From positions 9,502 through 73,501 of the forward strand of contig JBAXOD010000003.1 of NCBI GenBank assembly GCA_037133435.1: a stretch of DNA of 64,000 nt, in the 5' to 3' direction. The position numbers were made by a program, and so were the translations under genes. This DNA is from Candidatus Moraniibacteriota bacterium. Lineage in GTDB: Bacteria > Patescibacteriota > Minisyncoccia > Moranbacterales > UBA1568. Positions 3,170 through 55,471 of this stretch are shown here, one piece after another. Each line of letters opens with the position of its first letter. Positions within the stretch are counted from its first letter, which is position 1. The notes beneath the pieces were generated by a model. That model had not been told where the DNA came from. It saw only the letters and a list, made by a program, of their open reading frames with translations, and ran no database searches.

Positions 3170-3718
3170 TTATTCCGGGATGATGACCATGCTGATGCCG
3201 TTGCGCATTCCCTTGATCTCTTCCTCCACTTTGTAGGGGATGGCGAGGAGATCGAGGAATTCCTTCATGGATTCTTTCGCGCGGTCGCGCATCGCCTTCT
3301 CACGTCCGCGAAGGAGCAGTTCTATCCGTACCTTGTGGCCTTTTGAAAGGAATTTTTCCGCCTGATCCTTCTTGAAGAGGAGATCGTGCCTGTCGACGCG
3401 GAGTCCGATACGGATACCCTTGATGTCGATCTTTTTCTGGTTGCTCTTGGCCTGCTGTTCCTTCTTGGTCTGTTGGTATTGGAATTTCCCGTATTCGAGG
3501 ATCTTGCACACCGGGGGGACCGCCTGTGGTGAGACTTCGATGAGATCGAGTTCGTCCGCCCGTGCGATCTCCAGGGCCTGCGCGACGGACATCTCGCCGA
3601 GCGACTCGCCGTTTAAGCCTATCACGAAAATGACCGGCGCGGTGATTTGCTCGTTGTGCCGGAATTTCTGCTTGATCTGCGGCTTCGGTTTCGGCCTTCT
3701 GCTGCGTCTGCGTCTCAT
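3170..3718 (-). CDS. infC: translation initiation factor IF-3
   Basis: IF3 N- and C-domain motifs are present (VIGLNGESLGEMSVAQALEIARADELDLIEVSPQAVPPVCKILEYGKFQYQ ... IKGIRIGLRVDRHDLLFKKDQAEKFLSKGHKVRIELLLRGRE). It sits upstream of rpmI-rplT. Confidence 0.85.
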   Translation of the reverse strand: MRRRRSRRPKPKPQIKQKFRHNEQITAPVIFVIGLNGESLGEMSVAQALEIARADELDLIEVSPQAVPPVCKILEYGKFQYQQTKKEQQAKSNQKKIDIKGIRIGLRVDRHDLLFKKDQAEKFLSKGHKVRIELLLRGREKAMRDRAKESMKEFLDLLAIPYKVEEEIKGMRNGISMVIIPE

Positions 3719-3815
3719 ATGGTAGCGTCAGAAGCTTCGGAAGCTGCAAGAGCTTCAAGAGCTTAAATATATATTTCGCGTTACCGAAGTTTTTGAGGCT
3801 TCGGTACGCTTCCTG

Positions 3816-4210
3816 TGGAGTTGATGGGAATCGCACCCATGTCCAAACGGGTTTTTCCAGAACCGCCTACAAGCATAGTCAGCCTTTGGTTCCCCGGAAA
3901 GCGGAAAGGCGGACGGAAATCCTTCCGGGACCTCTTTTCATGCCGGGCCGACTGAGTGAATCGAGGTAAGACTCGTGTCGGTCCGCCTGATGGTATGACA
4001 CCGGATGACCCTTATCAGACATCGGGGGTCCGATGGCTCTCGCGAATTAGGCGAGGGCTGAAGCGAAAGACGGGGAGAACGCGTTAGCGAACGCCATCTT
4101 CACCTTTGATACGATGTTGGCAGTTATCGTGTGCGGGGATTTTTTACGATGATTCCCCATCATCGGCTTGCAGGTTCTGAATGAACGCGCTGTCGAAACT
4201 AAACAACCCC
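3816..4210 (-). ncRNA. ssrA: tmRNA (SsrA)
   Basis: The minus-strand 5' end reads GGGGUUGUUUAGUUUCGACAGCG (compare E. coli GGGGCUGAUUCUGGAUUCGACGGG). The 3' end reads AUGGG-UGCGAUU-CCCAU-CAACUCC-A (T-arm, then acceptor 3' strand pairing with the 5' GGGGUUG, then discriminator A; CCA is not encoded). An internal in-frame reading ...AFANAFSPSFASALA-UAA is a candidate tag. It lies immediately next to smpB. Confidence 0.65.
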
Positions 4211-4279
4211 CGCCCGCAACGCTTCGCCAGCTCGCCACGCTGCGCTTGCGCTGCTGGCGAGCGTAGCGATGCGGGCGGG
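4209..4279. repeat. long GC-rich hairpin of the CCCGCCCGCAACGCTTCGC...GCGATGCGGGCGGG family, just upstream of the tmRNA 5' end
   Basis: 14-bp arms cccgcccgcaacgc / gcgatgcgggcggg with one mismatch, enclosing a second nested palindrome. The same arms recur at about 48059 and, in degraded form, inside ileS, glyQS and atpA. Confidence 0.5.
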
Positions 4280-5183: not shown

Positions 5184-5366
5184 CTATTGGGCTATATACA
5201 TATTATTTCTGCGTGTTTCTAAAACGGGATCGGTTACAAATTTTTGTTCATCGTTCTCTTGTGGAACGTGCCCCTCTTTCTTTTGGGTTCCGTATTTGAT
5301 TTTATATATTTCCGCGACACGCTCGGCGGCTGACTTTCCTTTGACAGGGTTCTTTTCTTGAGTCAT
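5184..5366 (-). CDS. small Lys-rich hypothetical protein
   Basis: 60-aa ORF in an AT-rich spacer. No family recognised; it could be spurious. Confidence 0.25.
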   Translation of the reverse strand: MTQEKNPVKGKSAAERVAEIYKIKYGTQKKEGHVPQENDEQKFVTDPVLETRRNNMYIAQ

Positions 5367-5485
5367 TGCTCATCCCTCCGGATAATTGAAATGTTAACGA
5401 AATTCTTTCGACCTTGATTTTTTATCATAAATGGAAAGAGAGCGCAAGTCTTCACGATGAAGGCATTTTCCCGTAGGATGGGAAT

Positions 5486-7099
5486 ATGAAGACTCAATGG
5501 GAGGAACACATCGGGACTGCGATAGCGGAGCTGCAAGGGGAAGGCCGGCTTCCTGTTTTTGACGTGCCCAAGATCAGCGTCGAGTGGACCCGGGACGAGC
5601 GGTTCGGGGAATATGCCAGCAATGCGGCGCTCGCGCTCGCGAAGCTCGCGAAAAAATCGCCGATGGAACTCGCGAAACTTATCGCCGACAAGCTTGAATC
5701 GGCTGCGGACGGACATATCGAGGTCGCCGCGCCGGGATATATCAATATCACGCTTTCGCAGTCGGCACTTTCCGCCGTCGTGGAGGAGATTCTCGAGCGT
5801 GGCGGGAAATATGGCGACAGCGGTATCGGCGAAGGGGTGTCGGTGAACAATGAATTCGTTTCCGCGAATCCGACGGGACCGATGCATCTTGGGAACGGGC
5901 GGGGAGGGTTCTTCGGCGACGCGCTTTCGAACATCCTGCGCAAGACGGGATATACGGTCATCAGTGAATTCTACGTCAACGACGCCGGTGGACAGGTGAT
6001 GAAGCTCGGGCACAGCGTTTTGCGCGATGAGCAGGCGGTATATGAAGGGGAGTACATCGATGAGATACGGGAGCGGTTCGATATCGGCGATGAGTCCGCG
6101 GCAGACGATGCACGCGTGCGCGAGGTCGGGACGATGGCCGCGGACTTCGTTCTTGCGGAATATATCCGAAAGACGCTCGAGGAAAAGATGCATATCACGT
6201 ACGATTCCTTCATTTCGGAGCGTACGGACATCGTCGGCAAGGGATTCGCGGATCGGGCGATCTCGATACTTCGCGATAAGGGGCTGACGTATGAGCAGGA
6301 CGGAGCGCTCTTTCTTCGCACGACGGATTTCGGGGACGACAAGGATCGGGTGCTGATCAAATCCGACGGGAACCGTTCCTATTTCGCTTCGGATTGCGGT
6401 AACTTCCTCTCCAAGCTGGATCGTGGCGCGACCCGTCTCATTTTGGAGCTCGGTGCGGACCATCACGGATATGTCCCGCGCATCAATGCCGCGGCGCGTG
6501 CGCTCGGTTTCGAAGGTCGTTTCGATATCTATCTGCATCAGCTGGTACGGCTCGTGAAGGACGGCAAGGAAGTGCGCATGTCGAAGCGCGCGGGGAACGT
6601 GGTGACGATCGACGAACTCGTCGACCTGGTCGGGCACGACGTCGCACGGTTTTTCTTCCTCATGTTGTCGCTCGATACGCACATGAATTTCGACCTTGGG
6701 CTCGCAGAGGAGCGGTCGGAAAAGAACCCGGTGTATTACGTACAGTATGCGCATGCGCGGCTTTCCAGCATCCTGCGAAAGGCAGAGGAAAGCGGTTTTT
6801 CGGCGGAAGGCGCGGATTTGTCGCTTCTGGTCAACCTGAAGGAGCGAGGATTGTTTCGTGAACTTTTGCTGTTTCCCGAATTGTGCGTCGAGGTGGCGGA
6901 TACGGGCGCGGTACACAAGCTTCCGCAGTACGCGATCCGGCTTGCCGACCGACTCCATTCCTTTTATGCCGATTGCCGCGTGATCGACGAGGGAAATCGG
7001 GAGCTGTCCGTGGCACGGCTCGCGTTGGTTACGGCTATCCGGACCGTTCTCGCCGAGACGTTGCGGCTGATCGGCATCGAGCCGCTTGAAAAGATGTGA
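5486..7099 (+). CDS. argS: arginyl-tRNA synthetase
   Basis: Class I HIGH-type motif (PTGPMHLGNGRGG), ...SEFYVNDAGGQ..., and the DALR anticodon-binding region (NPVYYVQYAHARLSSILRKA). 537 aa. Confidence 0.9.
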   Translation: MKTQWEEHIGTAIAELQGEGRLPVFDVPKISVEWTRDERFGEYASNAALALAKLAKKSPMELAKLIADKLESAADGHIEVAAPGYINITLSQSALSAVVEEILERGGKYGDSGIGEGVSVNNEFVSANPTGPMHLGNGRGGFFGDALSNILRKTGYTVISEFYVNDAGGQVMKLGHSVLRDEQAVYEGEYIDEIRERFDIGDESAADDARVREVGTMAADFVLAEYIRKTLEEKMHITYDSFISERTDIVGKGFADRAISILRDKGLTYEQDGALFLRTTDFGDDKDRVLIKSDGNRSYFASDCGNFLSKLDRGATRLILELGADHHGYVPRINAAARALGFEGRFDIYLHQLVRLVKDGKEVRMSKRAGNVVTIDELVDLVGHDVARFFFLMLSLDTHMNFDLGLAEERSEKNPVYYVQYAHARLSSILRKAEESGFSAEGADLSLLVNLKERGLFRELLLFPELCVEVADTGAVHKLPQYAIRLADRLHSFYADCRVIDEGNRELSVARLALVTAIRTVLAETLRLIGIEPLEKM

Positions 7100-36942: not shown

Positions 36943-38349
<1,407 letters not shown>

Positions 38350-38462: not shown

Positions 38463-38822
38463 ATGGAAAAATTCCGGTTCAGGAAATGGAAAGTGTACAA
38501 TGATTCGCAGGAGCTCTTTTCCCTTATTCTGAAAATTGTTAAGGATCTACCGAAAGAATTCCGTTTCGAAATAGGAAGTCAGATGATCCATGCCGCCTTG
38601 TCGGTAGCGCTTAATATTGCGGAAGGAAGTGGAAAAACTACGGATAAGGAACTGAATCGTTTTCTGAATATTTCCCTCGGCTCCCTCTATGAGACGATGA
38701 CGGCAATGGATGCGTTGAAATTAAACGGGATGGTTCAAGAAGAGCGGTATGATGAGGCGATGAAACAGATAGATGGGATTTCAAACCAGCTTGGTGGGTT
38801 AAAGAAAACACTTGTGAAATGA
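38463..38822 (+). CDS. four-helix-bundle protein (23S rRNA IVS protein / Avd-like family) inserted between atpD and atpC
   Basis: The 119-aa protein (ELFSLILKIVKDLPKEFRFEIGSQMIHAALSVALNIAEGSGKTTDKELNRFLNISLGSLYET...) fits the family. It is flanked by heptamer arrays in opposite orientations: acaactN upstream, ttgtaag downstream. Confidence 0.65.
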   Translation: MEKFRFRKWKVYNDSQELFSLILKIVKDLPKEFRFEIGSQMIHAALSVALNIAEGSGKTTDKELNRFLNISLGSLYETMTAMDALKLNGMVQEERYDEAMKQIDGISNQLGGLKKTLVK

Positions 38823-38850: not shown

Positions 38851-39294
38851 ATGTTACTCAGACTGAAGATAGTGACGCCGGAACGGCTCGTGCTCGAAGA
38901 GGACGTGTATTCGGTGACGTTGCCGGCCGAGGACGGGGAGATCACTGTATTGCCGGACCATATCCCGTATATCGGGTCGCTCCGGTCCGGGGAGATTTTC
39001 TTTCGCCGAGAGGCGAACGCGGAGCCGGAGAGTCTTGCGACCTCGGGCGGGTTCGTGGAGCTCCACGGCAATGTCCTGTCCGTCATGGCCGATACCGCCG
39101 AACGTGCCGAGGAGATCGACCTCGAACGTGCCGAAGTGGCGAAGAAGAAAGCCGAGGAGCTCAAGGCCGAGCGGCATCTGCTCGACGACGAACAATATGC
39201 CCGTGTCGCGGCGTCTTTGGAGAAAGAATTCGCCCGGCTGCACGTCGCCCACAAACATCGGAGTAAAGGCGGATTCGTCGCTCCGGGACAGTAG
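38851..39294 (+). CDS. atpC: F0F1 ATP synthase subunit epsilon
   Basis: The N-terminal beta-sandwich start (LRLKIVTPERLVLEEDVYSVTLPAEDGEITVLPDHIPYIGSL) is typical, and the gene closes the operon. Confidence 0.8.
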   Translation: MLLRLKIVTPERLVLEEDVYSVTLPAEDGEITVLPDHIPYIGSLRSGEIFFRREANAEPESLATSGGFVELHGNVLSVMADTAERAEEIDLERAEVAKKKAEELKAERHLLDDEQYARVAASLEKEFARLHVAHKHRSKGGFVAPGQ

Positions 39295-45616: not shown

Positions 45617-45700
45617 TACCGCGGGAGAGACTCGAACTCTCATGGTATCGCTACCGCGGGATTTTGAGTCCCGTGTGTCTACCAGTTCCACCACCGCGGC
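45617..45700 (-). tRNA. tRNA-Leu (anticodon CAA), type II with long variable arm
   Basis: Folded by hand on the minus strand: acceptor GCCGCGG/CCGCGGU (G1-U72), 3-bp D-stem GUG/CAC, anticodon stem CGGGA/UCCCG with loop CUCAAAA, variable arm GGUAGCGAUACC, T-arm GAGAG-UUCGAGU-CUCUC, discriminator A. CCA is not encoded. Confidence 0.8.
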
Positions 45701-47858: not shown

Positions 47859-48167
47859 TATCTCTCTCAAATCTCATGTCGAACTGAAATACGGAAATTT
47901 CGATAGGAGCGCCAACCAGAGGTTGGTCACCCTCTGGGTGAAAAACCCTGAAAATCGAGGACGGGTATCCGAAGGAGATGGGGATCCCGCTGTCGTAACC
48001 TGACGATTTTTGAATGATTTGTCCGCCCGCGACGATCGCTTGGCGAGACGGTCGGGGTCCGCCCGCAACGCTTCGCGTAGCGATTCGGGCGGGCAGCCGA
48101 AATTTTCGGATTTCAGCCGGCAAGCGGATTTTTTGCCTTATAGAGGCGTTGAGATTTGAGAGAGATA
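47859..48167. repeat. 309-bp segment bounded by perfect 17-bp inverted repeats (TATCTCTCTCAAATCTC / GAGATTTGAGAGAGATA)
   Basis: Read directly. The interior contains hairpins ccagaggttgg/caccctctgggtg and a family-B hairpin (about 48059-48093). The right arm overlaps the TTG start of the next ORF. Confidence 0.4.
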
Positions 48168-48533
48168 CTTACTTGCATTGAAAACGATATGAAATTGATC
48201 ACAAATGACGAAACAATCAGTCGATCCGAATTGAAAGATATGGCCGGGAAGATGTTTGGCGGACTGGTAAAGGGCGTTGTGGATGTCTCGCGCGGGATCA
48301 TGGCCGTGGATGCCGAACTGCATGCCGACGAGGAAGCGTTCCTTCTGAAATCCGGCTCGTCGCAAGACGATCTCTGGGGTATCAACCTTTATCCGGACGA
48401 GACGGGTGAGGATTTCATCGAATTCGATTCCATGATAAACGTCCGACCCCGACAGGGAAATAAGAGTCGTGGCGTCGAGAATGCCGATCTTCGGAGTGCA
48501 ATAATCGGAATCGTAAACGATCTAGTCGTATGA
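48156..48533 (+). CDS. hypothetical protein (TTG start)
   Basis: 125-aa ORF. Its stop overlaps the next gene's start by 4 bp. Confidence 0.4.
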   Translation: MREILTCIENDMKLITNDETISRSELKDMAGKMFGGLVKGVVDVSRGIMAVDAELHADEEAFLLKSGSSQDDLWGINLYPDETGEDFIEFDSMINVRPRQGNKSRGVENADLRSAIIGIVNDLVV

Positions 48534-48865
48534 GCGATATCTTCCATGAGGGTTTGGCGAACGGCGGATGGGAAGTACTCCCGCTCGTTTCGCAGATGGC
48601 CAATATCGGCAGTGAAGTCGGTCGTGCATTCTCGTGGCGGGGAAAAAATCGTGAGGAACGGGCGAACGACGCGGCGTGCCGGGCTTTGGAACTGTTTGAT
48701 TTTTCCCTTTCCGATGCGAAAAACCGTGAACGCCTACGCGAGATCGCACGAGCGCGCGAAGTGTTCGTCGATTCTTTTTTTGGTGACAATGAATACGGCT
48801 CCACCCCTGAATTGTGGCAATCATATTTCTTAGCCTTCGCGACGGCTGCCCGACAAGGGAAGTAA
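48530..48865 (+). CDS. hypothetical protein (possibly MazG-like all-alpha NTP pyrophosphohydrolase)
   Basis: 111-aa acidic helical protein. Weak resemblance to the MazG family only; not diagnostic. Confidence 0.3.
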   Translation: MSDIFHEGLANGGWEVLPLVSQMANIGSEVGRAFSWRGKNREERANDAACRALELFDFSLSDAKNRERLREIARAREVFVDSFFGDNEYGSTPELWQSYFLAFATAARQGK

Positions 48866-48992: not shown

Positions 48993-51671
48993 ATGTCTGA
49001 AAAGGATTTTTTCGCTATCGGAGAGGAACGACGGAAGCTTCGTCACGAGGTGCTTGATGCGACCGGGTTTTCGGCACACGAAGTGTCTTCGCGTGGCGGA
49101 GTGGTCGCGAAACCGGAATTCATGAAGGAGGTCAATGAAGGCAACCTTTCAAATGTCGCGGAGAAGGTCGTGCTCGATGCGGACTCGGCGCCTTCGGTAT
49201 CCGAGGGACTTGACCGTATCGAGGCGTTGAACGAGAAAGCAAAGGAGTTCAAACTTTTTCCGGACCGACCGGAGAAAACCGAAGCGGTGTCGCCTGAACA
49301 AACGGAGCGGTCACTTTCCGATGTCCGCCGACGATATGCAAAAGCGCGCGAGGCCAAGGCGCTTGATGGTGGAGGAGAGAAGCCGACGAGGATGGATACA
49401 GAAGAGACGCTCATCGAGCCAAACGAAAAGGAACAGCGAAAGGCAAACCTTTTCCAGGAACTTTATTCGATGGAACGATTTTCCACACTCCAGAAGCAGG
49501 GTCGGTATCGTTTGTTGCGCCGACCGGAAGATGAGCGACTTGCCGAACGGCTTCGTATAGGCGCGGACCTCACGCGGACCGTCATAAAACGGCGCGAAAC
49601 ACTTGAGGCGGATGTGGATACGAGATACGTGGTCCGTGAATATGAGCTGTCGAAATATCGGCAACAGCTGACAAACGAACGCTTCGTGGTCACGCCGAGT
49701 CGGCGTGGCTATATCGATCGGATCGGATCACTCATCGAACAAGGAAAGCCGATTCTTGAGGAAGGGCATACCGGTGGTGGCAAGACCGAGCTCGCGAAGT
49801 ATGCCGCGCGCGAATGTACCGGTCGTGAAGCTGAGGTCGTGTATTGCAACCCACAGACCCGCCAGAGCGATATTTTCGGCAGGCAATCACTTCGTGAAAG
49901 TGACCGCGGGGCAACCGTGACGGATATCGATTTCGGTCCGCTCACGAGGGCTCTTACCGAAGGGAAAATCTGTATTTTCGATGAATTTAACGAGCTTGAC
50001 CCGAGATTCCGGCAGGTGCTCAAAGCCCTCTACAACGCGAAACCTGGGGACATGGTGAACGTGCCGGGCAATGGCAAAGTTCTCGTCGCACAAGGGTTCG
50101 GTTGCATCATGACCGCGAACCTCAAGAGTGAGAAATATGCCGAGAAGGGTGCGCTTGAACCGCAAGAAACACGAGTGTTTCTTGATTCGACCATTCGGAC
50201 GGACTATCCGCCTGCTTCGGAATTGTACGATGTCGCACTGTCCTCACTTGCCGATACGCAGGGGAACGTGCTTCTGACGCGCGAAGAGGCGGACACGACC
50301 CTGAAGCATTTCACCGATGCCATCCACGATATACAGGAGGCATATGCGAACACACTCCCGGCACACTATGGAAATGACACCGATTTTTCGGCGTTCGGGA
50401 AGGGGTCGAAACGGGGGAAACGACCGCAACTCGAGAAATACGTGCTCGATACCGGTATGGCGGTGCGACTCTTACAGGGATTTCGAATCGCACGGATGGA
50501 ACACGGGACATCGCTTGTCGATTTCCTCGACGAAGCACTCATCCGGACCTTCGAGGGGGACAAGATCGGTGAAGAGGACAAGCGCCTCGCGATCTATATG
50601 TTGGCCCAAAAAGGATTCCTCTCAGGATACAAGCAAGAGGACTTTCGGACACGCATCGGGGTCGATTACTCCGACAAGAAGCTCGATCCGACGACATTAT
50701 CAAAATCGAAACGAGCCGAGCTTTCTCCGGACGAAAGCTTTGCGACCCTGTCCGCCGAAGAGGTGGCGAGAATCGATCCGTATGAACGGATGAGAATCGA
50801 CGCGAATGAGGAGCTCGGATTGCCGTCCACGTCACCGGATAAGCCGGGCTCTCCTGAATACCACAGTTTCAGGGAGGCACGGGATATCTTCAAGGAGCGT
50901 TTCTATGGGCCAGAGGAAACAGAGCAGGTCTTCGGGTTCCGACCGGAAGCACCACCGATCCCGTATACAAAAGCAGACATGCTCCGGCACGAACAGCTCG
51001 GTCATATCCTGATGTACAATCCGGATATATTGCCAGACGGGACGCCGTTCGATATTCAGACCATGGCCAGTCGTGCGCTTTCCGGCGGACGCAATGTCTT
51101 GGAACGCGATGCGAGCGGAATTCCGACGAAGTATCTCCTCTACAAGGAGCAGTTTGACGAAAATGGTAAGATCTTGGACGGTGCTTGGTTTTCTGGCGAT
51201 CAAGAAGTGAAAACCGGCACCCCACAGTCTGGGTGGCAGTTTGTCTCGCCCGAGGCCTTGCCTGATACGGAAAACAAAAACTTCGTCGCGCAGACGGATA
51301 TCCTGATCGAGAATGCGAGAGAAAATTTCTTTGGCGGAGGAGTACCGGATGCATTTCAAAAAGCCGTCGATGAATGGCATTCAAAGAAGGTTATGTTCAA
51401 AGATGATGCCAACAAGCTTGCGTCGCTTCCAATCATGAACTTTGTGCGTGAACGAGTACAAAATACGATATTTCGGTTTCTCCTCGTACATGGAACAGGA
51501 AGAGGGACGCTGTTCGCGGACGGCAATTATGTCTGGTCATATGCACTCTCGTCGGGCGGCAGCCTCGTTTCCTTCGGCTTTGCGGTCGCGGTTGGCGCGG
51601 ACGTGTACGGGTACGCGCCGGTTGACTCGTACTCGGATTTGCGTGCCGTGGCCTCCCGCAGTGGATGTTGA
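48993..51671 (+). CDS. DGR target protein: MoxR-like AAA+ ATPase (AAA_5-type) with a C-terminal hypervariable (VR-encoded) domain
   Basis: Walker A LEEGHTGGGKTELAKYA, Walker B ICIFDEFNELD, sensor GFGCIMTANLK. The last ~40 codons are the VR of the DGR; they differ from the downstream TR only at adenine positions. Confidence 0.8.
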   Translation: MSEKDFFAIGEERRKLRHEVLDATGFSAHEVSSRGGVVAKPEFMKEVNEGNLSNVAEKVVLDADSAPSVSEGLDRIEALNEKAKEFKLFPDRPEKTEAVSPEQTERSLSDVRRRYAKAREAKALDGGGEKPTRMDTEETLIEPNEKEQRKANLFQELYSMERFSTLQKQGRYRLLRRPEDERLAERLRIGADLTRTVIKRRETLEADVDTRYVVREYELSKYRQQLTNERFVVTPSRRGYIDRIGSLIEQGKPILEEGHTGGGKTELAKYAARECTGREAEVVYCNPQTRQSDIFGRQSLRESDRGATVTDIDFGPLTRALTEGKICIFDEFNELDPRFRQVLKALYNAKPGDMVNVPGNGKVLVAQGFGCIMTANLKSEKYAEKGALEPQETRVFLDSTIRTDYPPASELYDVALSSLADTQGNVLLTREEADTTLKHFTDAIHDIQEAYANTLPAHYGNDTDFSAFGKGSKRGKRPQLEKYVLDTGMAVRLLQGFRIARMEHGTSLVDFLDEALIRTFEGDKIGEEDKRLAIYMLAQKGFLSGYKQEDFRTRIGVDYSDKKLDPTTLSKSKRAELSPDESFATLSAEEVARIDPYERMRIDANEELGLPSTSPDKPGSPEYHSFREARDIFKERFYGPEETEQVFGFRPEAPPIPYTKADMLRHEQLGHILMYNPDILPDGTPFDIQTMASRALSGGRNVLERDASGIPTKYLLYKEQFDENGKILDGAWFSGDQEVKTGTPQSGWQFVSPEALPDTENKNFVAQTDILIENARENFFGGGVPDAFQKAVDEWHSKKVMFKDDANKLASLPIMNFVRERVQNTIFRFLLVHGTGRGTLFADGNYVWSYALSSGGSLVSFGFAVAVGADVYGYAPVDSYSDLRAVASRSGC
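51543..51658 (+). repeat. DGR variable repeat (VR) at the 3' end of the target gene
   Basis: 116-bp gapless alignment with the TR at about 51925-52040. About 15 mismatches, every one at a TR adenine. The 3' end ...gatttgcgtgccgtggcctcccg is identical (IMH-like). Encodes ...ALSSGGSLVSFGFAVAVGADVYGYAPVDSYSDLRAVASR. Confidence 0.8.
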
Positions 51672-51924
51672 GCTTTGATCTTTGAACCTTTGAGTCGGCT
51701 TCCGCCCCGGAAAGGGGTGGAAGCGGTTTTGAATATGATATACTGATTGTGGGAATGAGACACGGCGTACGCGTCGTGACCCCAGCAGTTTCTGCTTGTC
51801 CGGTGTCGGCGCGAGTATCGACAGAGAGGGGAGTAGGAGCGCGCGCATATTTTCTCCCCACGTCCGGTGCCGGTACGAGACCGTATCCGCTTCGGAACGC
51901 ATTCGGATGGCACCGGGCACCATG

Positions 51925-52040
51925 GCACTCTCGTCGGACGGCAACCTCGTTTACTTCGGCAATGCGGACGCGAATGGCGCGAACGTGAACGGGAACACGC
52001 CGGATGACTCGAACTCGAATTTGCGTGCCGTGGCCTCCCG
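51925..52040 (+). repeat. DGR template repeat (TR)
   Basis: gcactctcgtcggacggcaacctcgtttacttcggcaatgcggacgcgaatggcgcgaacgtgaacgggaacacgccggatgactcgaactcgaatttgcgtgccgtggcctcccg. Rich in AAC/AAT codons (8 Asn in frame). Non-coding position between the target gene and avd. Confidence 0.8.
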
Positions 52041-52052
52041 AAGGAACGGCGA

Positions 52053-52442
52053 TCACCGCGGACGACCCGCGGTTTTCGTTTCCTCCGATTCGGTCGTCTT
52101 TTTGAGCCAGCCACCGATCATCTTGCCGATCTCGACGCCGTATCCGGATAATTCGGCGTACCCGGCATCGTTGAGACATCGGGTATCGTGCGCGAGCCGG
52201 AGATGAAAGAAAAATATCCGCAGTGTCACGTCCATCTTGTTGAGGATCATGGCCCTCGATGTGCCACGTTTCGATTGAGCCAGGTAGCCGAGCTCGACAA
52301 TCTCGAGGAGGGACTGTTCGAGACGCATACCGAGCGAGTAGCGTGACGCTTTCGGAAATGAAAGAATACGGGTATGGAGACACCGATAACAGTCGGCAAG
52401 CCGAAGGAAAATGACCGGTTCCGAGAAGTTGCTGTCGTTCAT
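52053..52442 (-). CDS. avd: DGR accessory variability determinant (Avd), four-helix-bundle family
   Basis: 129-aa minus-strand ORF: ...FPKASRYSLGMRLEQSLLEIVELGYLAQSK...LNKMDVTLRIFFFHLRLAHDTRCLNDAGYAELSGYGVEIGKMIGGWLKK. This aligns well with the bAvd/PF05635 pattern (...LRLA...EIGKMLGGW...). Divergent from the RT. Confidence 0.7.
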   Translation of the reverse strand: MNDSNFSEPVIFLRLADCYRCLHTRILSFPKASRYSLGMRLEQSLLEIVELGYLAQSKRGTSRAMILNKMDVTLRIFFFHLRLAHDTRCLNDAGYAELSGYGVEIGKMIGGWLKKTTESEETKTAGRPR

Positions 52443-52448
52443 GATGAT

Positions 52449-53474
52449 ATGTTCGAACGGATTATCTCACTTGAGAACCTGGTTGGCGCGTGGCGTGAAT
52501 TCCGAATCGGGAAACGTTCCAAAAAAGACGTCATCGAGTTCGGTGATCGGGTCGAAGAATATCTCGTGGCGCTCGCTCTCGACCTGAAAGCCGGGAAGTA
52601 TCGTCACGGACAGTATACCCGATTCATCGTCCACGATCCAAAACGGAGGGAAATATCCAAGGCGCCGGTCCGTGACCGGGTGCTCCACCATGCCCTTTGC
52701 CGAGTGATCGTTCCCGTGTTCGATCGCGGATTCATTTTCGATTCGTATGCGAATCGGACCGGGAAAGGGACACTTTCCGCGAATGACCGGCTCGATGCCT
52801 TCGTCCGGAAATGCTCGCGAAACGGCTCGCGCACGGCGTTCGTATTGAAGGCTGATATCCGGAAATACTTCGATTCGGTCGATCACGAAACGTTGCTTCG
52901 GATTTTGGGTCGACGGATCCGATGTGAACGAACGCTCGGATTGCTTCACTTTGTCGTTTCGAGCTTTGAAACGTCTCCCGGTAAAGGTATTCCACTCGGA
53001 AACTTGACGTCGCAACTGTTCTCCAACGCGTATCTCGATCCATTTGACCAGTTCGTAAAGCGAGAGCTCGGTGTGAAATACTATATCCGGTATGCCGATG
53101 ATTTCGTGGTCCTTTCGGACGATGTGGGAGCGCTTGACCGCATGCGGTCACGTATGGATGCGTTCCTGACCCTGAATCTCGGCCTCACGCTACATCCCGA
53201 GAAGACACGGATTGTTCGATTCGGGAGCGGGGTGGATTTTCTCGGGAAGGTGCATTTCCGATTTCACCGGGTCCTTCGCGTGAAAACGAAGAGACGAAGT
53301 ATCCGGAGAATCGCATCTCGGAATGAGTCATCGTATATCGGACTCCTGAGACATTCGCGGTCGCATGGATTGGTACGGATACTCCGTGATATACTGGAAC
53401 AAAGGAATATTTTGGAAGAAGTATGCGTGAACCCGTCTACAAAGCCGAGCGGAGCGTGGACCAGTCGGGTATGA
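52449..53474 (+). CDS. DGR reverse transcriptase
   Basis: RT motifs including YADDFVV. The DGR-diagnostic LGNLTSQ (I/LGxxxSQ in motif 4, replacing the group II intron QG). N-terminus MFERIISLENLVGAW resembles the Bordetella bRT start. The ORF track offers 52374 as an upstream start, but that would overlap avd. Confidence 0.85.
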   Translation: MFERIISLENLVGAWREFRIGKRSKKDVIEFGDRVEEYLVALALDLKAGKYRHGQYTRFIVHDPKRREISKAPVRDRVLHHALCRVIVPVFDRGFIFDSYANRTGKGTLSANDRLDAFVRKCSRNGSRTAFVLKADIRKYFDSVDHETLLRILGRRIRCERTLGLLHFVVSSFETSPGKGIPLGNLTSQLFSNAYLDPFDQFVKRELGVKYYIRYADDFVVLSDDVGALDRMRSRMDAFLTLNLGLTLHPEKTRIVRFGSGVDFLGKVHFRFHRVLRVKTKRRSIRRIASRNESSYIGLLRHSRSHGLVRILRDILEQRNILEEVCVNPSTKPSGAWTSRV

Positions 53475-55471
53475 CACGTCCCGATTCGGGCGACAACGGC
53501 GACCCGGTGGCCGATTTTATCGAACGAAACAAACGTGCGCTTACGCAGTATGCCGGCGATGCGTCGCTTTCCGTGCGTTCTGCCGAGGGGGTGATGACAC
53601 CAGACGGCCCGCTTGAGACATGCGCGATCGATCTTGAGAAGGGAGAATATTATTTGCATCGACGGTTCCGGGACGGGGCATACGGTGGATCCGAGGAGAA
53701 GATGCTCTTCGGGGCGTTTCATGAGATAGAACACTTCCGCGAGCTTCGGGGTCTTTTGCGGGAGCACACCGGGTCGGACGTCTGGCGGAAATTGCGAAAG
53801 AAAAAAGAAGAACGGACGCGGTATCATATATTGGATAATTCTTTTGGTGATGTGAAGATGAATAATGCGGTCGTGAATCGCGCGCCCGTATTGTCCGGGA
53901 CGCGGGAAGAACTGTATCGGAGCGACCTATTTCCCGAGCGGGACTTGACGGGCCTTCCGAAACATTTGCAGTTCGTGCACGTGCTGAATTGCGAGATGCA
54001 GATCCCGGGCGAGACCTGGACGGTCGATCCGGACGTCCGTGAGGAATTCGAGAAACTGAAAACGATACGCGGTCAGAAATCCGGACGCCCGATACTCGAG
54101 TATGCGACCCATCCGGATATCTCGATGCGTGATCGACTGATCGTGCAAGACGCGCTCATCGAACCGGTGTACGAAAAATTCTTCGTAGAGGACGTTCGGA
54201 AGAAACAAGAACAGCAATCGAACAAACCTTCGGAATCGGGGCAAAAAAATGGTGAACCGGACCAAAGCGGGGATGCATCGAAACCGGGAAGCAGTGATGG
54301 AAAGCCGGATACGAATCAGGAGCCTCCATCGGAATCGTCTTCGAAGCCAGGGAATGAAATGCCTGGGCAGAGCGAAGGGGCTTCGGGTAAGTCGACCGAT
54401 GAAAACAGGACTGACCCCGAGAATCCCGAGGCATATTTCCGTAAGGAATATGATGACTATTTTAAACAGCATCCGGAGGCGATACCAAAAGACGTGTTGA
54501 AGCGTGTTGTGGAAGAGGAAATCACACGACAAAACGAAAGCATGCGAGATCCTGGAAAAAACGCGTTCGATGCGTATGCCCGGGCGCAGGGCGTCGAGCC
54601 GAACGATCTTCGGAACTATATGCGTTTCCGTGACTCGCTCGAAAAAATAACCGATTCGGAAACAGGCGAATCGGTTGTAGATGCGATACGAGAACTGTTC
54701 GAGCGGATTATTTCGAAACGTTTGAAGTGGATGCCAGAGCCGAAATACCCACTTCCGGAAGGGGACGAGCTTGAATATCCTGCAGAAGCAGTTGTCAGGA
54801 CACGCGCTGGCGAGACAGAACCAGACGTATGGAGTGAGACGGAATTTCGTGAAAAAGAGGGGGATTTCACGGGTGACTTCGATGTGACTCTTGTTGGTGA
54901 TACCTCGATTTCGATGGCGGAAAATGGCGGGAAAAAACGGGACGAACAGAAGAAAGGCATCATATTGATCATGGAGGCACTTTCTGAATTCTCGGAGCGA
55001 TTAGAAGAGGTGCGCTCGCGGCTCCGACATGATCTGCACGTCCGTTCGGAAGGATGGGTATTCGGGAATTCGGCGGAATGTGTCAAACCGCTGTCCGAGG
55101 ATTTGTCGGAGAAAGACCGGGTCGCGATGTACAAGCGACTTGGGAACACGAGCGGATCGACGAAGGACTTTCTCGTACTCAAAAAGTTGTCTGATGCCCT
55201 GACCGAAGATGAAGTGAATCGCATACGTAATGGAAGTCTTAAAAAAATTGTTATCGTCATGACCGATGGAGATAGTGATAACGTAGCGCTTGTACAAGAA
55301 GAGCTCAAAAAACTTCGTGATAATGGCGTCATCGTTATCGGCGTAGGGATAACTGAAGAAGGGAAATCGGCACTGACGACCTATGCGCCGGAGGCGAGGC
55401 TTTGTGAAAAAGCGACGGATGTAGCCATGGTTCTCGGTGAACTGCTCAAGGAACATCTCCGGAGCCTTTAA
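53471..55471 (+). CDS. vWA domain protein (MIDAS motif) with N-terminal HExxH-containing region
   Basis: C-terminal vWA domain: DVTLVGDTSISM ... IVIVMTDGDSDN (DxSxS...T...D MIDAS). N-terminal FHEIEHF. Central low-complexity acidic/Ser-Gly-rich linker. The start ATG overlaps the RT stop (ATGA). The ORF track start 53423 is in the same frame. Confidence 0.7.
   Translation: MTRPDSGDNGDPVADFIERNKRALTQYAGDASLSVRSAEGVMTPDGPLETCAIDLEKGEYYLHRRFRDGAYGGSEEKMLFGAFHEIEHFRELRGLLREHTGSDVWRKLRKKKEERTRYHILDNSFGDVKMNNAVVNRAPVLSGTREELYRSDLFPERDLTGLPKHLQFVHVLNCEMQIPGETWTVDPDVREEFEKLKTIRGQKSGRPILEYATHPDISMRDRLIVQDALIEPVYEKFFVEDVRKKQEQQSNKPSESGQKNGEPDQSGDASKPGSSDGKPDTNQEPPSESSSKPGNEMPGQSEGASGKSTDENRTDPENPEAYFRKEYDDYFKQHPEAIPKDVLKRVVEEEITRQNESMRDPGKNAFDAYARAQGVEPNDLRNYMRFRDSLEKITDSETGESVVDAIRELFERIISKRLKWMPEPKYPLPEGDELEYPAEAVVRTRAGETEPDVWSETEFREKEGDFTGDFDVTLVGDTSISMAENGGKKRDEQKKGIILIMEALSEFSERLEEVRSRLRHDLHVRSEGWVFGNSAECVKPLSEDLSEKDRVAMYKRLGNTSGSTKDFLVLKKLSDALTEDEVNRIRNGSLKKIVIVMTDGDSDNVALVQEELKKLRDNGVIVIGVGITEEGKSALTTYAPEARLCEKATDVAMVLGELLKEHLRSL

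Follow-up and report, generated by a model that had tools for sequence, protein, structure and literature searches.

Opposite-strand avd as the common cassette form of CPR DGRs: an actively diversifying example from Candidatus Moraniibacteriota with a probably separate template RNA

The DNA analysed here (the window) is a stretch of 64,000 nucleotides from Candidatus Moraniibacteriota bacterium, which carries a DGR comprising a target gene, two repeats, an opposite-strand avd gene and a reverse transcriptase (RT) gene. The target gene (48993-51671, + strand) encodes a protein of 892 aa, whose AAA_5 ATPase domain (Pfam, E 5e-13) lies close to the N-terminus and whose C-terminus carries the variable repeat (VR), and the same gene is found at the same position in the relatives L081, L083, L088 and L093 (the prefix L designates related loci). 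The VR occupies the 3' end of the target ORF (51543-51661, + strand), the stop codon following 10 nt past its end, and forms with the template repeat (TR, 51925-52043), the sense strand of which is the + strand, a direct repeat of 119 nt and 87% identity, the homology ending with a shared segment, GTGCCGTGGCCTCCCG (IMH/IMH*). All mismatches between the two repeats (16 of 16) fall at adenines of the + strand TR, and therefore the TR RNA has the sense of the RT strand and is opposite to avd. The strand logic of the original prediction, namely that a + strand TR transcript reaching the RT would be antisense to avd, was thus right.

Among four near-identical strains (the window, L088, L089 and L090, with RTs 96% identical) the VRs differ only at TR adenines, while the TR is nearly invariant between strains with differing VRs, the two TRs compared (window and L088) showing differences at 2 non-A sites. 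No second RT and no second VR is present within the window. The element is a complete, active and still diversifying DGR of the CPR/Patescibacteria type. Downstream of the target gene lies a GC-rich hairpin with a stem of 11 bp (51698-51724) followed by GGTTTTGAAT, the whole (51698-51734, + strand) being recovered as a terminator-like site in our scan. This hairpin is kept in L088, L081 and L083, where C/T and G/A changes preserve the pairing. It is the inverted repeat downstream of the IMH, a feature class described previously (PMC5758913), and probably serves also as the target-gene terminator. The statement that an inverted repeat occurs downstream of the VR only is true of this particular repeat; a different hairpin also follows the TR.

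In the window the TR (+) is followed by avd (accessory variability determinant; 52053-52442, - strand), a gene of 129 aa with an ATG start at 52442, and then by the RT gene (+), which begins at 52374 or 52449 and ends at 53474, with no HRDC, MSL or CH1-type genes between TR, avd and RT. As originally predicted, the avd ATG lies 7 nt from the RT ATG at 52449; the avd end, placed about 13 nt past the TR, is indeed close to it, the actual gap being 9 nt, and in 53 loci the distance from TR end to avd stop varies between -25 and +46 nt (median ~13). A minus-strand avd directly upstream of the RT is kept in 72 of 80 related loci, or in 72 of the 74 that are testable (GTDB), since 6 of the remaining 8 lack upstream DNA, and the proposed refutation, that homologues would not conserve this ORF, accordingly fails. 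A same-strand (+) avd occurs in none of the testable loci. The same order recurs in eight further loci with upstream DNA (L081, L083, L085, L088-L090, L092 and L093).

Wu et al. (2018, NAR, PMC5758913) designated this arrangement, TR-(avd)-RT, architecture B3 and assigned 90% of CPR DGRs to it (DGR clade 2 of Roux et al. 2021, PMC8144416). The window shares with the CPR B3 DGRs both the order and the orientation of the components, the single adjacent target and the chromosomal context, and its target, an AAA/P-loop (Midasin-like) ATPase with a C-terminal VR, belongs to the class noted for CPR targets by Wu et al.; there is no layout difference. The cassette is therefore B3, that is, target-VR, TR, (avd on the opposite strand) and RT. 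The reversed avd is the rule in the RT lineage of the window, and the layout is already published and ordinary for CPR DGRs, so that its earlier description as atypical holds only in comparison with the Bordetella prototype.

The RT (52374-53474, + strand; RVT_1) comprises 366 aa, or 341 aa if counted from the ATG at 52449, and contains the motif IPLGNLTSQ, of which LGNLTSQ is invariant in 23 aligned homologues. The motif-4 signature [ILV]GxxxSQ is diagnostic of DGR-clade RTs. Consistently, the best PDB match is the Bordetella bRT (8ub7_A, E 3.8e-48), the best group II intron RT reaching 2e-20. The homologues number more than 7,600, and where the homologues or related loci carry a taxon name, this is mostly Moraniibacteriota, Parcubacteria, Saccharibacteria, Paceibacterota and similar, a few bins being labelled otherwise (e.g. 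Gammaproteobacteria, Methanosarcinales).

One question then is where translation of the RT begins. The conserved core of the protein starts at F27 (52452), which aligns with bRT residue 9, and two in-frame ATG codons precede or adjoin it. The upstream start at 52374, one of the possibilities raised in the original prediction, does open an ORF overlapping avd in antisense by 69 nt, in the same codon register, and its use is slightly favoured rather than proven. The competing possibility, to which we assign somewhat less than an even chance, is that the RT begins at 52449 without any coding overlap, the segment 52374-52448 being open merely as the antisense of a constrained avd N-terminus. Between the window and L085 the changes in this segment are conservative in the Avd frame (S/A, N/S, S/T, I/L, R/K) and radical in the RT frame (P to M, K to P, P to F, D to A), in favour of a start at 52449, and the avd/RT codon register varies in the family. 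Most relatives have just 8-10 residues ahead of the core and some (L018, L029/L045) can start only 1-2 codons ahead of it. bRT itself has 8 pre-core residues, of which the one at -4 is a His and the one at -1 is hydrophobic, and the window has both (H23, M26); M26 hence looks like an internal RT residue. Position 26 is a valid start in 5 of 5 clade members (ATG; GTG in L085), but retention of H23 requires a start upstream of 52440, for which the sole canonical in-frame candidate is 52374, and this ATG is conserved in 4 of 4 relatives. Likewise, the N-termini of a sister lineage (L093 and the proteins P0005-P0028), of the form MK(N/T)D(R/S)(F/L)G, align with window residues 11-17. Codon-position and substitution reasoning at first pointed to 52449; the His at -4, the hydrophobic residue at -1 and the sister N-termini shifted a slight preference to 52374.

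Upstream of both RT starts (52374 and 52449) a Shine-Dalgarno sequence is lacking. A weak candidate promoter for the RT, TG-A-AAGAAT (52359-52367, + strand), lies inside avd and ends 7 nt before the ATG at 52374, a spacing with which a leaderless RT mRNA is possible. L081 and L083 retain this element as TGAAAGTAT, L085 has lost it, and any role as the RT promoter is speculative. Across the family no conserved + strand -10 peak that could represent an RT promoter appears upstream of the RT start. On the other strand, a candidate avd promoter, TGAGATAAT (52461-52469, - strand), is located inside the RT coding sequence, antisense to the codons I30-I31-S32. A minus-strand TGnTAnnnT motif falls within RT codons 28-32 in 39 of 72 loci, in 34 of them at one exact position and in 5 at the position of the window; the window hexamer itself, GATAAT, is a near match to TAnnnT which does not fit and was left out of this count. 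Codon usage at these positions is similarly skewed, I30 being encoded by ATC in 62% of loci against a background of 29% (Fisher p 2.6e-7) and D29 by GAT in 24 of 25. These regularities suggest that an avd promoter may be embedded in the RT codons.

The TR RNA likewise appears to possess a promoter of its own. Just past the post-VR hairpin there is a candidate extended -10 element, TG-A-TATACT (51736-51744, + strand), with a predicted transcription start at ~51750-51752. At the aligned position 56 of 58 loci carry TAnnnT and 41 of 58 the TG extension, and the element of the window is conserved in L088, L081 and L083. Its distance to the TR is 181 nt in the window and 214-253 nt in most loci. 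The TR RNA had been proposed to originate within or upstream of the target 3' end; a conserved promoter upstream of the TR is indeed indicated by the alignment, but it is positioned downstream of the target stop codon and of the hairpin.

The putative 3' end of the TR RNA is marked by a stem-loop on the + strand (52055-52083), likewise recovered in the terminator scan, in which ACCGCGG-ACGAC-CCGCGGT (52055-52073) is followed by TTTCGTTTCC. The stem of 7 bp starts 12 nt past the end of the homology, and the element overlaps the last ~10 avd codons. In L085 the stem shows a compensatory change of G-C to A-T, the loop varies freely, and the Avd tail encoded over the stem undergoes a radical change from TAGRPR to TANESR. 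Across the family, 40 of 58 loci show a hairpin with a T-run after the TR when the + strand is scanned; for the - strand the figure is 1 of 58, and among random windows it is 4%. It is thus likely that this stem-loop, which resembles an intrinsic terminator, forms the 3' end of the TR RNA, although the T-run, being inside avd tail codons, could partly mirror codon content and not termination, and the stem-loop could be solely an Avd-binding element. By position it is equivalent to the Avd-binding stem-loop that Handa et al. (bioRxiv 10.1101/2023.10.23.563531) describe just 3' of the TR in the Bordetella DGR RNA; they report post-TR stem-loops for 207 of 278 DGRs with an Avd, among them CPR elements. 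A function of the hairpin as a bidirectional or avd terminator was rejected, there being no minus-strand T-run and only 1 of 58 loci that fit. Both the promoter and the terminator of the TR RNA are thus predicted from agreement with consensus-type elements.

Between the promoter and the TR lies the presumptive leader of the TR RNA (51751-51924, + strand), a conserved non-coding segment. Its identity to L081, L083 and L085 is 93, 89 and 72%, respectively, and that of its core (51822-51870) 94, 96 and 88%; the corresponding values for avd are 83, 81 and 72%, and among close relatives the leader is more conserved than either avd or the RT. In most relatives the leader extends over ~230 nt and shows a covarying structure, RNAalifold predicting for the family 5' domain 46 pairs, 43 of them with compensatory changes. 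A covariance model of this domain (R1) recovered 22 held-out loci at E <=4.5e-9, all on the + strand and upstream of the TR. With default filters R1 did not detect the window or four close relatives; with filters off it matched 51742-51864 (+) of the window weakly, at 8.4 bits (E 0.008 in a 601-nt search) and with only the 5' half of the model, and L093 at 6.9 bits. Because the match is weak and partial, the structured-leader result applies to the window only in part, and the leader of the window would be a shorter, diverged form of the structured domain found at the 5' side of most CPR DGR RNAs. The leader has no match in Rfam, either in the window or in four relatives, and a metagenome scan with the leader-core pattern retrieved only two near-identical contigs, which added no covariation data for the window leader. 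In consensus folding of 39 loci, the leader yields 51 pairs, 48 of them compensatory. The 140 nt that follow the post-TR hairpin (antisense avd) contain no conserved pair, and a further 140 nt contain 2 pairs, neither of which covaries; a structured Sp-like RNA antisense to avd was on this ground rejected. In the family a long-range helix also links the leader upstream of the TR with the TR 3' flank, the consensus AAAUGAAGA..UUG pairing with CAA..UCUUCAUUU.

We propose, with a probability of roughly 0.7, that the cassette is organised as three compact transcription units, one of them the TR RNA, a model that draws on comparative sequence evidence. Transcription of the target gene would stop at the post-VR GC hairpin with its T-run, and the extended -10 promoter located immediately after would start the TR RNA on the + strand. 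This RNA would run from ~51751 to ~52083 (~330 nt) and consist of the conserved leader, the TR and the stem-loop with its U-rich tail, the latter overlapping just the last ~30 nt of avd, such that TR RNA and avd would be convergent; since the overlap is confined to these ~30 nt, the TR RNA need not run antisense through avd. In its turn, avd would be transcribed on the minus strand from the promoter-like element in the RT 'IIS' codons, the RT would be transcribed and translated divergently from avd, and both proteins, like their Bordetella counterparts, would work in trans on the TR RNA. The RNA structure presumed to bind RT/Avd lies in most relatives 5' of the TR (in the ~230 nt leader), and not 3' as does the Bordetella spacer, which probably leaves room for a reversed avd in the DNA that follows the TR.

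A different and, in our opinion, unlikely possibility is that one long + strand transcript starts upstream of the TR and proceeds antisense through all of avd into the RT, the post-TR stem-loop being merely an Avd-binding element or a leaky attenuator. The lack of a conserved RT-specific + strand -10 upstream of the RT start leaves such read-through as a possible source of RT mRNA, yet this transcript would cover the whole of a partner gene, itself essential, in antisense. In Bordetella the essential RNA elements are downstream of the TR, where the stem-loop just 3' of it binds Avd and is not a terminator; in the family of the window, by contrast, the structured domain and the long-range helix to the TR 3' flank lie upstream of the TR, and the covarying pairs of the leader have no conserved counterpart in the 140 nt past the hairpin. 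Similarly, the T-run coincides with avd tail codons and the strict terminator scan is passed by no more than the 40 of 58 loci mentioned above, but the combination of hairpin and T-run is strongly strand-specific. The conserved post-TR hairpin with its T-run, and the absence of conserved RNA structure beyond it, thus disfavour the obligatory form of the read-through envisaged in the original prediction, and we retain the separate TR RNA as the preferred reading.

Still weaker is the notion that the ORF on the minus strand is either spurious, as mere antisense sequence, or the remnant of a decayed avd, the element working without Avd, which we consider highly improbable and in effect already refuted by conservation. 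With the Pfam bAvd model (PF22296) the ORF scores 50.6 bits (E 3e-13; model positions 13-106 of 107), exceeding the gathering cut-off of 40 bits, while with the NCBIfam model DivGenRetAVD (NF033474) it obtains 58.1 bits (E 8.6e-16), which is below the equivalog cut-off of 80 bits, this model presumably deriving mainly from non-CPR Avds. In a phmmer search of the PDB the single window Avd sequence found no match; a profile of 47 CPR Avds, however, has as its top PDB matches the entries 4dwl and 8ub7_B (Avd) of the Bordetella bAvd, whose solved structure is a pentameric four-helix bundle, with 4dwl_A (Bbp7 = bAvd) aligned over nearly the full length (positions 3-112 with 19-127, E 0.003). Some DGR lineages lack avd altogether (PMC5758913), but here the ORF is intact, with 69-90% amino-acid identity in the clade of the window, its GGW motif is invariant, Avd is recognisable across 72 loci, and the DGR is demonstrably diversifying. 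The residues P9 and Y19 are conserved in at least 90% of the 47 homologues. Both reside inside the RT overlap, which gene callers spare by trimming the avd of relatives to 91-98 aa, and their conservation argues that the long form of 129 aa is the real one and, together with the Avd homologue in 72 of 80 related loci, that the minus-strand ORF is not a chance occurrence. The spurious or decayed gene was rejected on the combined grounds of the Pfam score, conservation and the profile match. The reversed gene encodes a genuine homologue of bAvd, the window Avd being a divergent member of that family. Regarding a same-strand avd elsewhere in the window, the candidate at 38463-38822, which is flanked by atpD and atpC, is a member of the 23S_rRNA_IVP family (TIGR02436, 92 bits versus 17.8 bits for bAvd); it is the only other four-helix-bundle gene in the window.

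The organisation of the cassette can be compared with that of three other systems. The DGR of Bordetella phage BPP-1 (mtd-avd-TR-Sp-brt; PDB 8ub7; bioRxiv 10.1101/2023.10.23.563531) has an RT and an Avd homologous to those of the window and shares with it the adenine-specific transfer from TR to VR, the IMH, the GC hairpin after the VR and a stem-loop immediately 3' of the TR, which in BPP-1 binds Avd; a duplex joining the sequence upstream of the TR with that just downstream is likewise common to BPP-1 and the family of the window. The two differ in that avd of BPP-1 is on the same strand and upstream of the TR, whereas in the window it is reversed and placed between TR and RT. In BPP-1, moreover, a structured spacer of 140 nt (with primer A56, the Stop duplex, the thumb ring and the bRT-binding stem-loop) separates the TR from brt, whereas in the window this interval is antisense avd devoid of conserved RNA structure, and the family of the window has a large structured domain 5' of the TR, its RNA appearing to end right after the first stem-loop. 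A precedent for a separate template transcript is the DGR of Trichodesmium erythraeum, where dRNA-seq and northern blot revealed the TR as a discrete, abundant ncRNA of 265 nt that has its own promoter and transcription start and is distinct from the mRNA of the RT (Pfreundt et al. 2014, PMC4143802), while for the window we infer a separate transcript. Unlike the window, Trichodesmium has its TR downstream of the RT and 12 remote targets. The msr-msd ncRNA of retrons consists of a structured 5' part followed by the template; the 5' region pairs with the 3' end in a helix that sets the end of the template beside the structured domain, and a nearby RT acts on its own ncRNA. At the level of the family this RNA topology resembles that of the CPR DGR RNA, a speculative analogy which does not imply membership, for retrons have an RT of a different clade and no VR/TR system.

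Whether these observations can be united in a single scheme is a more tentative matter. CPR-type (B3) DGRs might use a permuted DGR RNA, in which a covarying domain of ~230 nt, not represented in Rfam and transcribed from its own promoter, would recruit RT and Avd from a position 5' of the TR, and the 3' end would be a U-tailed stem-loop read by avd in antisense. The duplex of the leader with the TR 3' flank would then bring the priming region to the template end in a retron-like manner, the reversed avd would be a consequence of this organisation, and the leader of the window would represent a further shortened variant. We rate this scheme as somewhat less probable than not. In the literature covered, which did not extend to Paul et al. 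2017 (Nat Microbiol), the principal study of CPR DGRs, we found no description of a promoter and a hairpin with T-run bracketing the TR, of a covarying 5' leader, or of an avd tail running through the post-TR hairpin.

The opposite-strand avd is thus a published and dominant form of the CPR cassette, and the locus in the window an intact, actively diversifying example of it. Annotators and DGR finders should expect the reversed-avd layout, and gene calls in which avd is cut to 91-98 aa, or in which an ORF of 195 aa is placed across the TR RNA, are not to be trusted. As a side result, the B3 layout seems to be accompanied by a differently organised template RNA, one that has a promoter to itself, carries a structured domain on its 5' side and finishes in a hairpin that overlaps avd. 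If this were confirmed, the Bordetella-derived model of the DGR RNA, in which the control elements are all 3' of the TR, would not fit the largest natural group of DGRs, and the design of minimal CPR DGR systems could be based on three small units.

The window contains a complete diversity-generating retroelement (DGR), in which the target ORF (48993-51671, + strand), with an AAA_5 ATPase domain near its N-terminus, carries a variable repeat (VR) of 119 nt (51543-51661, +) directly before its C-terminal codons. A downstream copy (51925-52043, +) is 87% identical to the VR, and since all 16 of the 16 differences fall at adenines of the downstream copy on the + strand, this copy is the template repeat (TR) and the sense strand is +. 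Beyond it lie avd (52053-52442, − strand; 129 aa), the stop codon of which is 9 nt past the TR end, and a DGR-type RT (52374-53474, +), which matches RVT_1, contains the invariant LGNLTSQ motif and has its best solved-structure match in the Bordetella bRT (E 3.8e-48). The avd ATG is situated 7 nt from an RT ATG at 52449 and 69 nt inside the RT ORF opening at ATG 52374; the geometry of avd, TR and RT in the original prediction is correct. The minus-strand ORF is a genuine, conserved Avd, scoring 50.6 bits against Pfam bAvd (cut-off 40 bits) and 58 bits (E 8.6e-16) against NCBIfam DivGenRetAVD, under the 80-bit cut-off of that equivalog, while a profile of 47 Avd homologues has as its top PDB matches the Bordetella bAvd entries 4dwl and 8ub7_B, aligned over nearly the full length. 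The element is active, since all differences between the VRs of four near-identical strains are restricted to TR adenine positions and the two TRs compared among such strains are almost identical.

The layout had been called atypical, which holds relative to the Bordetella phage prototype only and not for this lineage, the arrangement TR-(avd)-RT, in which avd is reversed, having been in the literature since 2018 as architecture B3 (Wu et al. 2018, PMC5758913). RT homologues with a taxon name belong to the CPR/Patescibacteria. Among 80 related loci from species-representative genomes, with RTs 45-53% identical to that of the window, 72 retain an Avd homologue, always opposite the RT strand and always directly upstream of the RT, which bears out the conservation that the original prediction had left to such a comparison; 6 of the 8 others have no upstream DNA, and a same-strand avd was found in none of the 80. 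In the 53 loci whose TR/VR pair is cleanly A-biased, the distance between TR end and avd stop ranges from -25 to +46 nt (median ~13), and the VR is found a further 230-520 nt upstream along the RT strand. The same gene order recurs, wherever upstream DNA exists, in closer relatives with RT identities of 96, 81, 75, 64, 58 and 54%. The reversed-avd layout is already known and, as a finding, of low interest. One related locus, L031, has two tandem leader-TR-(avd) modules (3615-3854 and 5311-5486, avd at 3979-4272 and 5609-5956) with a single RT downstream. Besides avd, the only four-helix-bundle gene in the window (38463-38822, +; 119 aa), located between atpD (36943-38349) and atpC (38851-39294), was rejected as a second, same-strand avd; it scores 92 bits with the 23S_rRNA_IVP family (TIGR02436) against 17.8 bits with bAvd, and its product is distantly paralogous to Avd and lies outside any DGR context.

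Any transcript running from the TR into the RT would cover avd in antisense, as had been pointed out originally; such read-through is possible but not favoured, and the 58 loci compared suggest a transcription unit of its own for the TR. The VR is followed by a hairpin and T-run, and these directly by an extended -10 element (TAnnnT in 56/58 loci, TG-extended in 41/58), which precedes the TR by 214-253 nt in most loci and by 181 nt in the window, where the candidate TR RNA promoter, TGATATACT (51736-51744, +), is kept in relatives with RT identities of 96-75%. Directly after the TR, a strict scan finds a GC-rich hairpin with a T-run on the + strand in 40 of the 58 loci, whereas the minus strand of these segments gives 1/58 and random windows give 4%; the hairpin of the window is ACCGCGG-ACGAC-CCGCGGT followed by TTTCGTTTCC (52055-52083, +). 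The close relative L085 has a compensatory G-C to A-T change in the stem and a different loop, and the Avd tail encoded opposite the hairpin reads TAGRPR in the window and TANESR in L085, so that selection preserves the hairpin and not the peptide. Beyond the hairpin, consensus folding gave no conserved pairs in the first 140 nt of antisense avd and 2 pairs, non-covarying, in the following 140 nt. In Bordetella the Avd pentamer has its binding site on a stem-loop immediately 3' of the TR, and similar stem-loops accompany 207 of 278 Avd-containing DGRs, CPR included (Handa et al., bioRxiv 10.1101/2023.10.23.563531); the post-TR hairpin of the window is its positional equivalent and, by analogy, may have a dual role, terminator-like and Avd-binding. 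The TR RNA would then start at its own promoter, for which the separate TR RNA start site of Trichodesmium is an experimental precedent, and end at the hairpin and T-run, with no need to cross avd.

The avd and RT genes stand head to head, and a candidate avd promoter is embedded in the RT gene. Across the family the codons of the conserved RT residues D-I-I-S are biased to GAT ATC AT, which creates a minus-strand extended -10 motif: ATC encodes I30 in 62% of loci, compared with a 29% share among the other Ile codons of the same genes (p 2.6e-7), and D29 is GAT in 24 of 25 loci. The motif occupies one fixed position in 34/72 loci and the position of the window in 5 more; the near match in the window, TGAGATAAT (52469-52461, −), lies ~12 nt upstream of the avd ATG, transcription start allowed for. 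RT codons 29-31 (in L011, L040 and L056, for example, and at 52461-52469 in the window) show a bias that points to a nucleotide-level signal, read as the minus-strand extended -10 of avd; no comparable conserved + strand promoter element for the RT was found in the family. In many loci (L003, L033, L072 and, as GGGGGGGG at 2911-2918, the sister-lineage locus L093), the stretch separating the starts of avd and RT contains a G-run (GGNGG to G8-G11), 43-54 nt ahead of the RT core. This run could be an RT Shine-Dalgarno sequence or else a homopolymer tract liable to slippage or misassembly; the window clade is without it.

For the RT itself we slightly favour, at a probability of about 0.55, a start at ATG 52374 over one at ATG 52449, which would leave no coding overlap with avd. 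The later start accords with substitutions in the upstream stretch that change the Avd frame conservatively and the RT frame radically, with an avd/RT codon register that varies over the family, and with the restriction of some relatives to starts 1-2 codons before the core. Against it, the aligned core of bRT is preceded by 8 residues, among them a His (-4) and a hydrophobic one (-1), both shared by the window as H23 and M26; the H23 codon and the avd ATG are exactly antisense to each other, a coupling also seen in L093, and 52374, kept in all four clade relatives, is the one canonical start in frame ahead of H23. Sister-lineage RT N-termini, MK(N/T)D(R/S)(F/L)G, moreover align to window residues 11-17. 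The 69-nt overlap offered as an alternative in the original prediction is plausible for the start at 52374. Exactly 7 nt separate this ATG from the end of a weak TG-n-AAGAAT element, a spacing that would allow a leaderless RT mRNA.

Minus-strand ORFs of 316 aa (51433-52383) and 195 aa (51527-52114) cover the VR-TR interval together with the TR and some of avd, and the latter ORF, without a Pfam match, is called as a gene in the annotations of several relatives (L081:2842-3432, L088:3154-3741); this ORF is most likely spurious, lying over GC-rich DNA for non-coding RNA. Calls of avd are shortened to 91-98 aa from the internal Met39 (L081:3371-3646, L083:3372-3668, L085:993-1268, L088:3680-3955), a start that keeps clear of the long RT call at the cost of helix 1, where the conserved P9 and Y19 lie. 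At its 3' end the RT ORF runs 52 nt (53423-53474) into the downstream VWA-domain gene (53423-55471), whereas the RTs of L081 and L083 are ~15 aa shorter, ending 3 nt before the VWA start and with an 8-nt overlap, respectively, so that a C-terminal RT extension is present in the window and in its 96% relative. In L081, L083, L088 and L093, too, the DGR is flanked by an AAA_5 target and a VWA partner, and a DUF5674 gene with a 111-aa ORF lies upstream of the target in the window (48156-48865) and between RT and VWA gene in L085 (2357-3048); the cassette neighbours have been rearranged within the lineage. The tmRNA gene (3813-4210, −; 123.8 bits) and a tRNA gene (45617-45700, −), with atp and parB-type neighbours, indicate a chromosomal, not a phage, context.

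Between the extended -10 promoter and the TR, most CPR DGRs are predicted to encode a covarying structured RNA domain of ~230 nt. RNAalifold on 39 loci gave 46 pairs, compensatory changes being seen in 43, and a repeat gave 51 pairs, 48 compensatory, with 91% of cells paired against 83% on the reverse strand; R1, a covariance model built from family leaders, matched 22 held-out loci at E <=4.5e-9, all on the + strand and all between VR and TR (among loci L002-L080, on the RT strand, for example L011:4087-4331 and L040:778-1023). No matching family was found in Rfam 15. Folding of the full-length RNA predicts a long-range helix of the leader segment AAAUGAAGA..UUG, single-stranded just 5' of the 'ACUUGGUG' helix (full.aln columns 142-156), with CAA..UCUUCAUUU of the TR 3' end and flank (columns 448-477), the 3' strand of which includes the avd stop codon in many loci. 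Complementarity is 80.7% for cognate and 70.6% for non-cognate pairs, a difference reached in 0/5000 permutations, phylogeny being ignored.

These results apply only partly to the window, where the leader has diverged and the evidence is weaker: R1 aligns only the 5' half, at 8.4 bits, and a metagenome scan with a leader-core pattern returned only near-identical copies. The window leader (51751-51924, +), conserved and non-coding, is nevertheless better conserved than avd or RT among the close relatives L081, L083 and L085 (93/89/72%, core 94/96/88%, against 83/81/72% for avd).

In Bordetella the control elements of the RNA lie 3' of the TR, in contrast to the structured domain 5' of the TR in the CPR family, the TR-RNA topology of which resembles a retron ncRNA, with a leader-TR flank helix reminiscent of the Bordetella primer/Stop duplexes or the retron a1/a2 stem. 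Such an organisation was not found in Rfam or the accessible literature. We regard as unproven, and moderately interesting, the reading that the TR RNA of CPR DGRs would be a self-contained molecule of different organisation, its structured domain preceding the TR.
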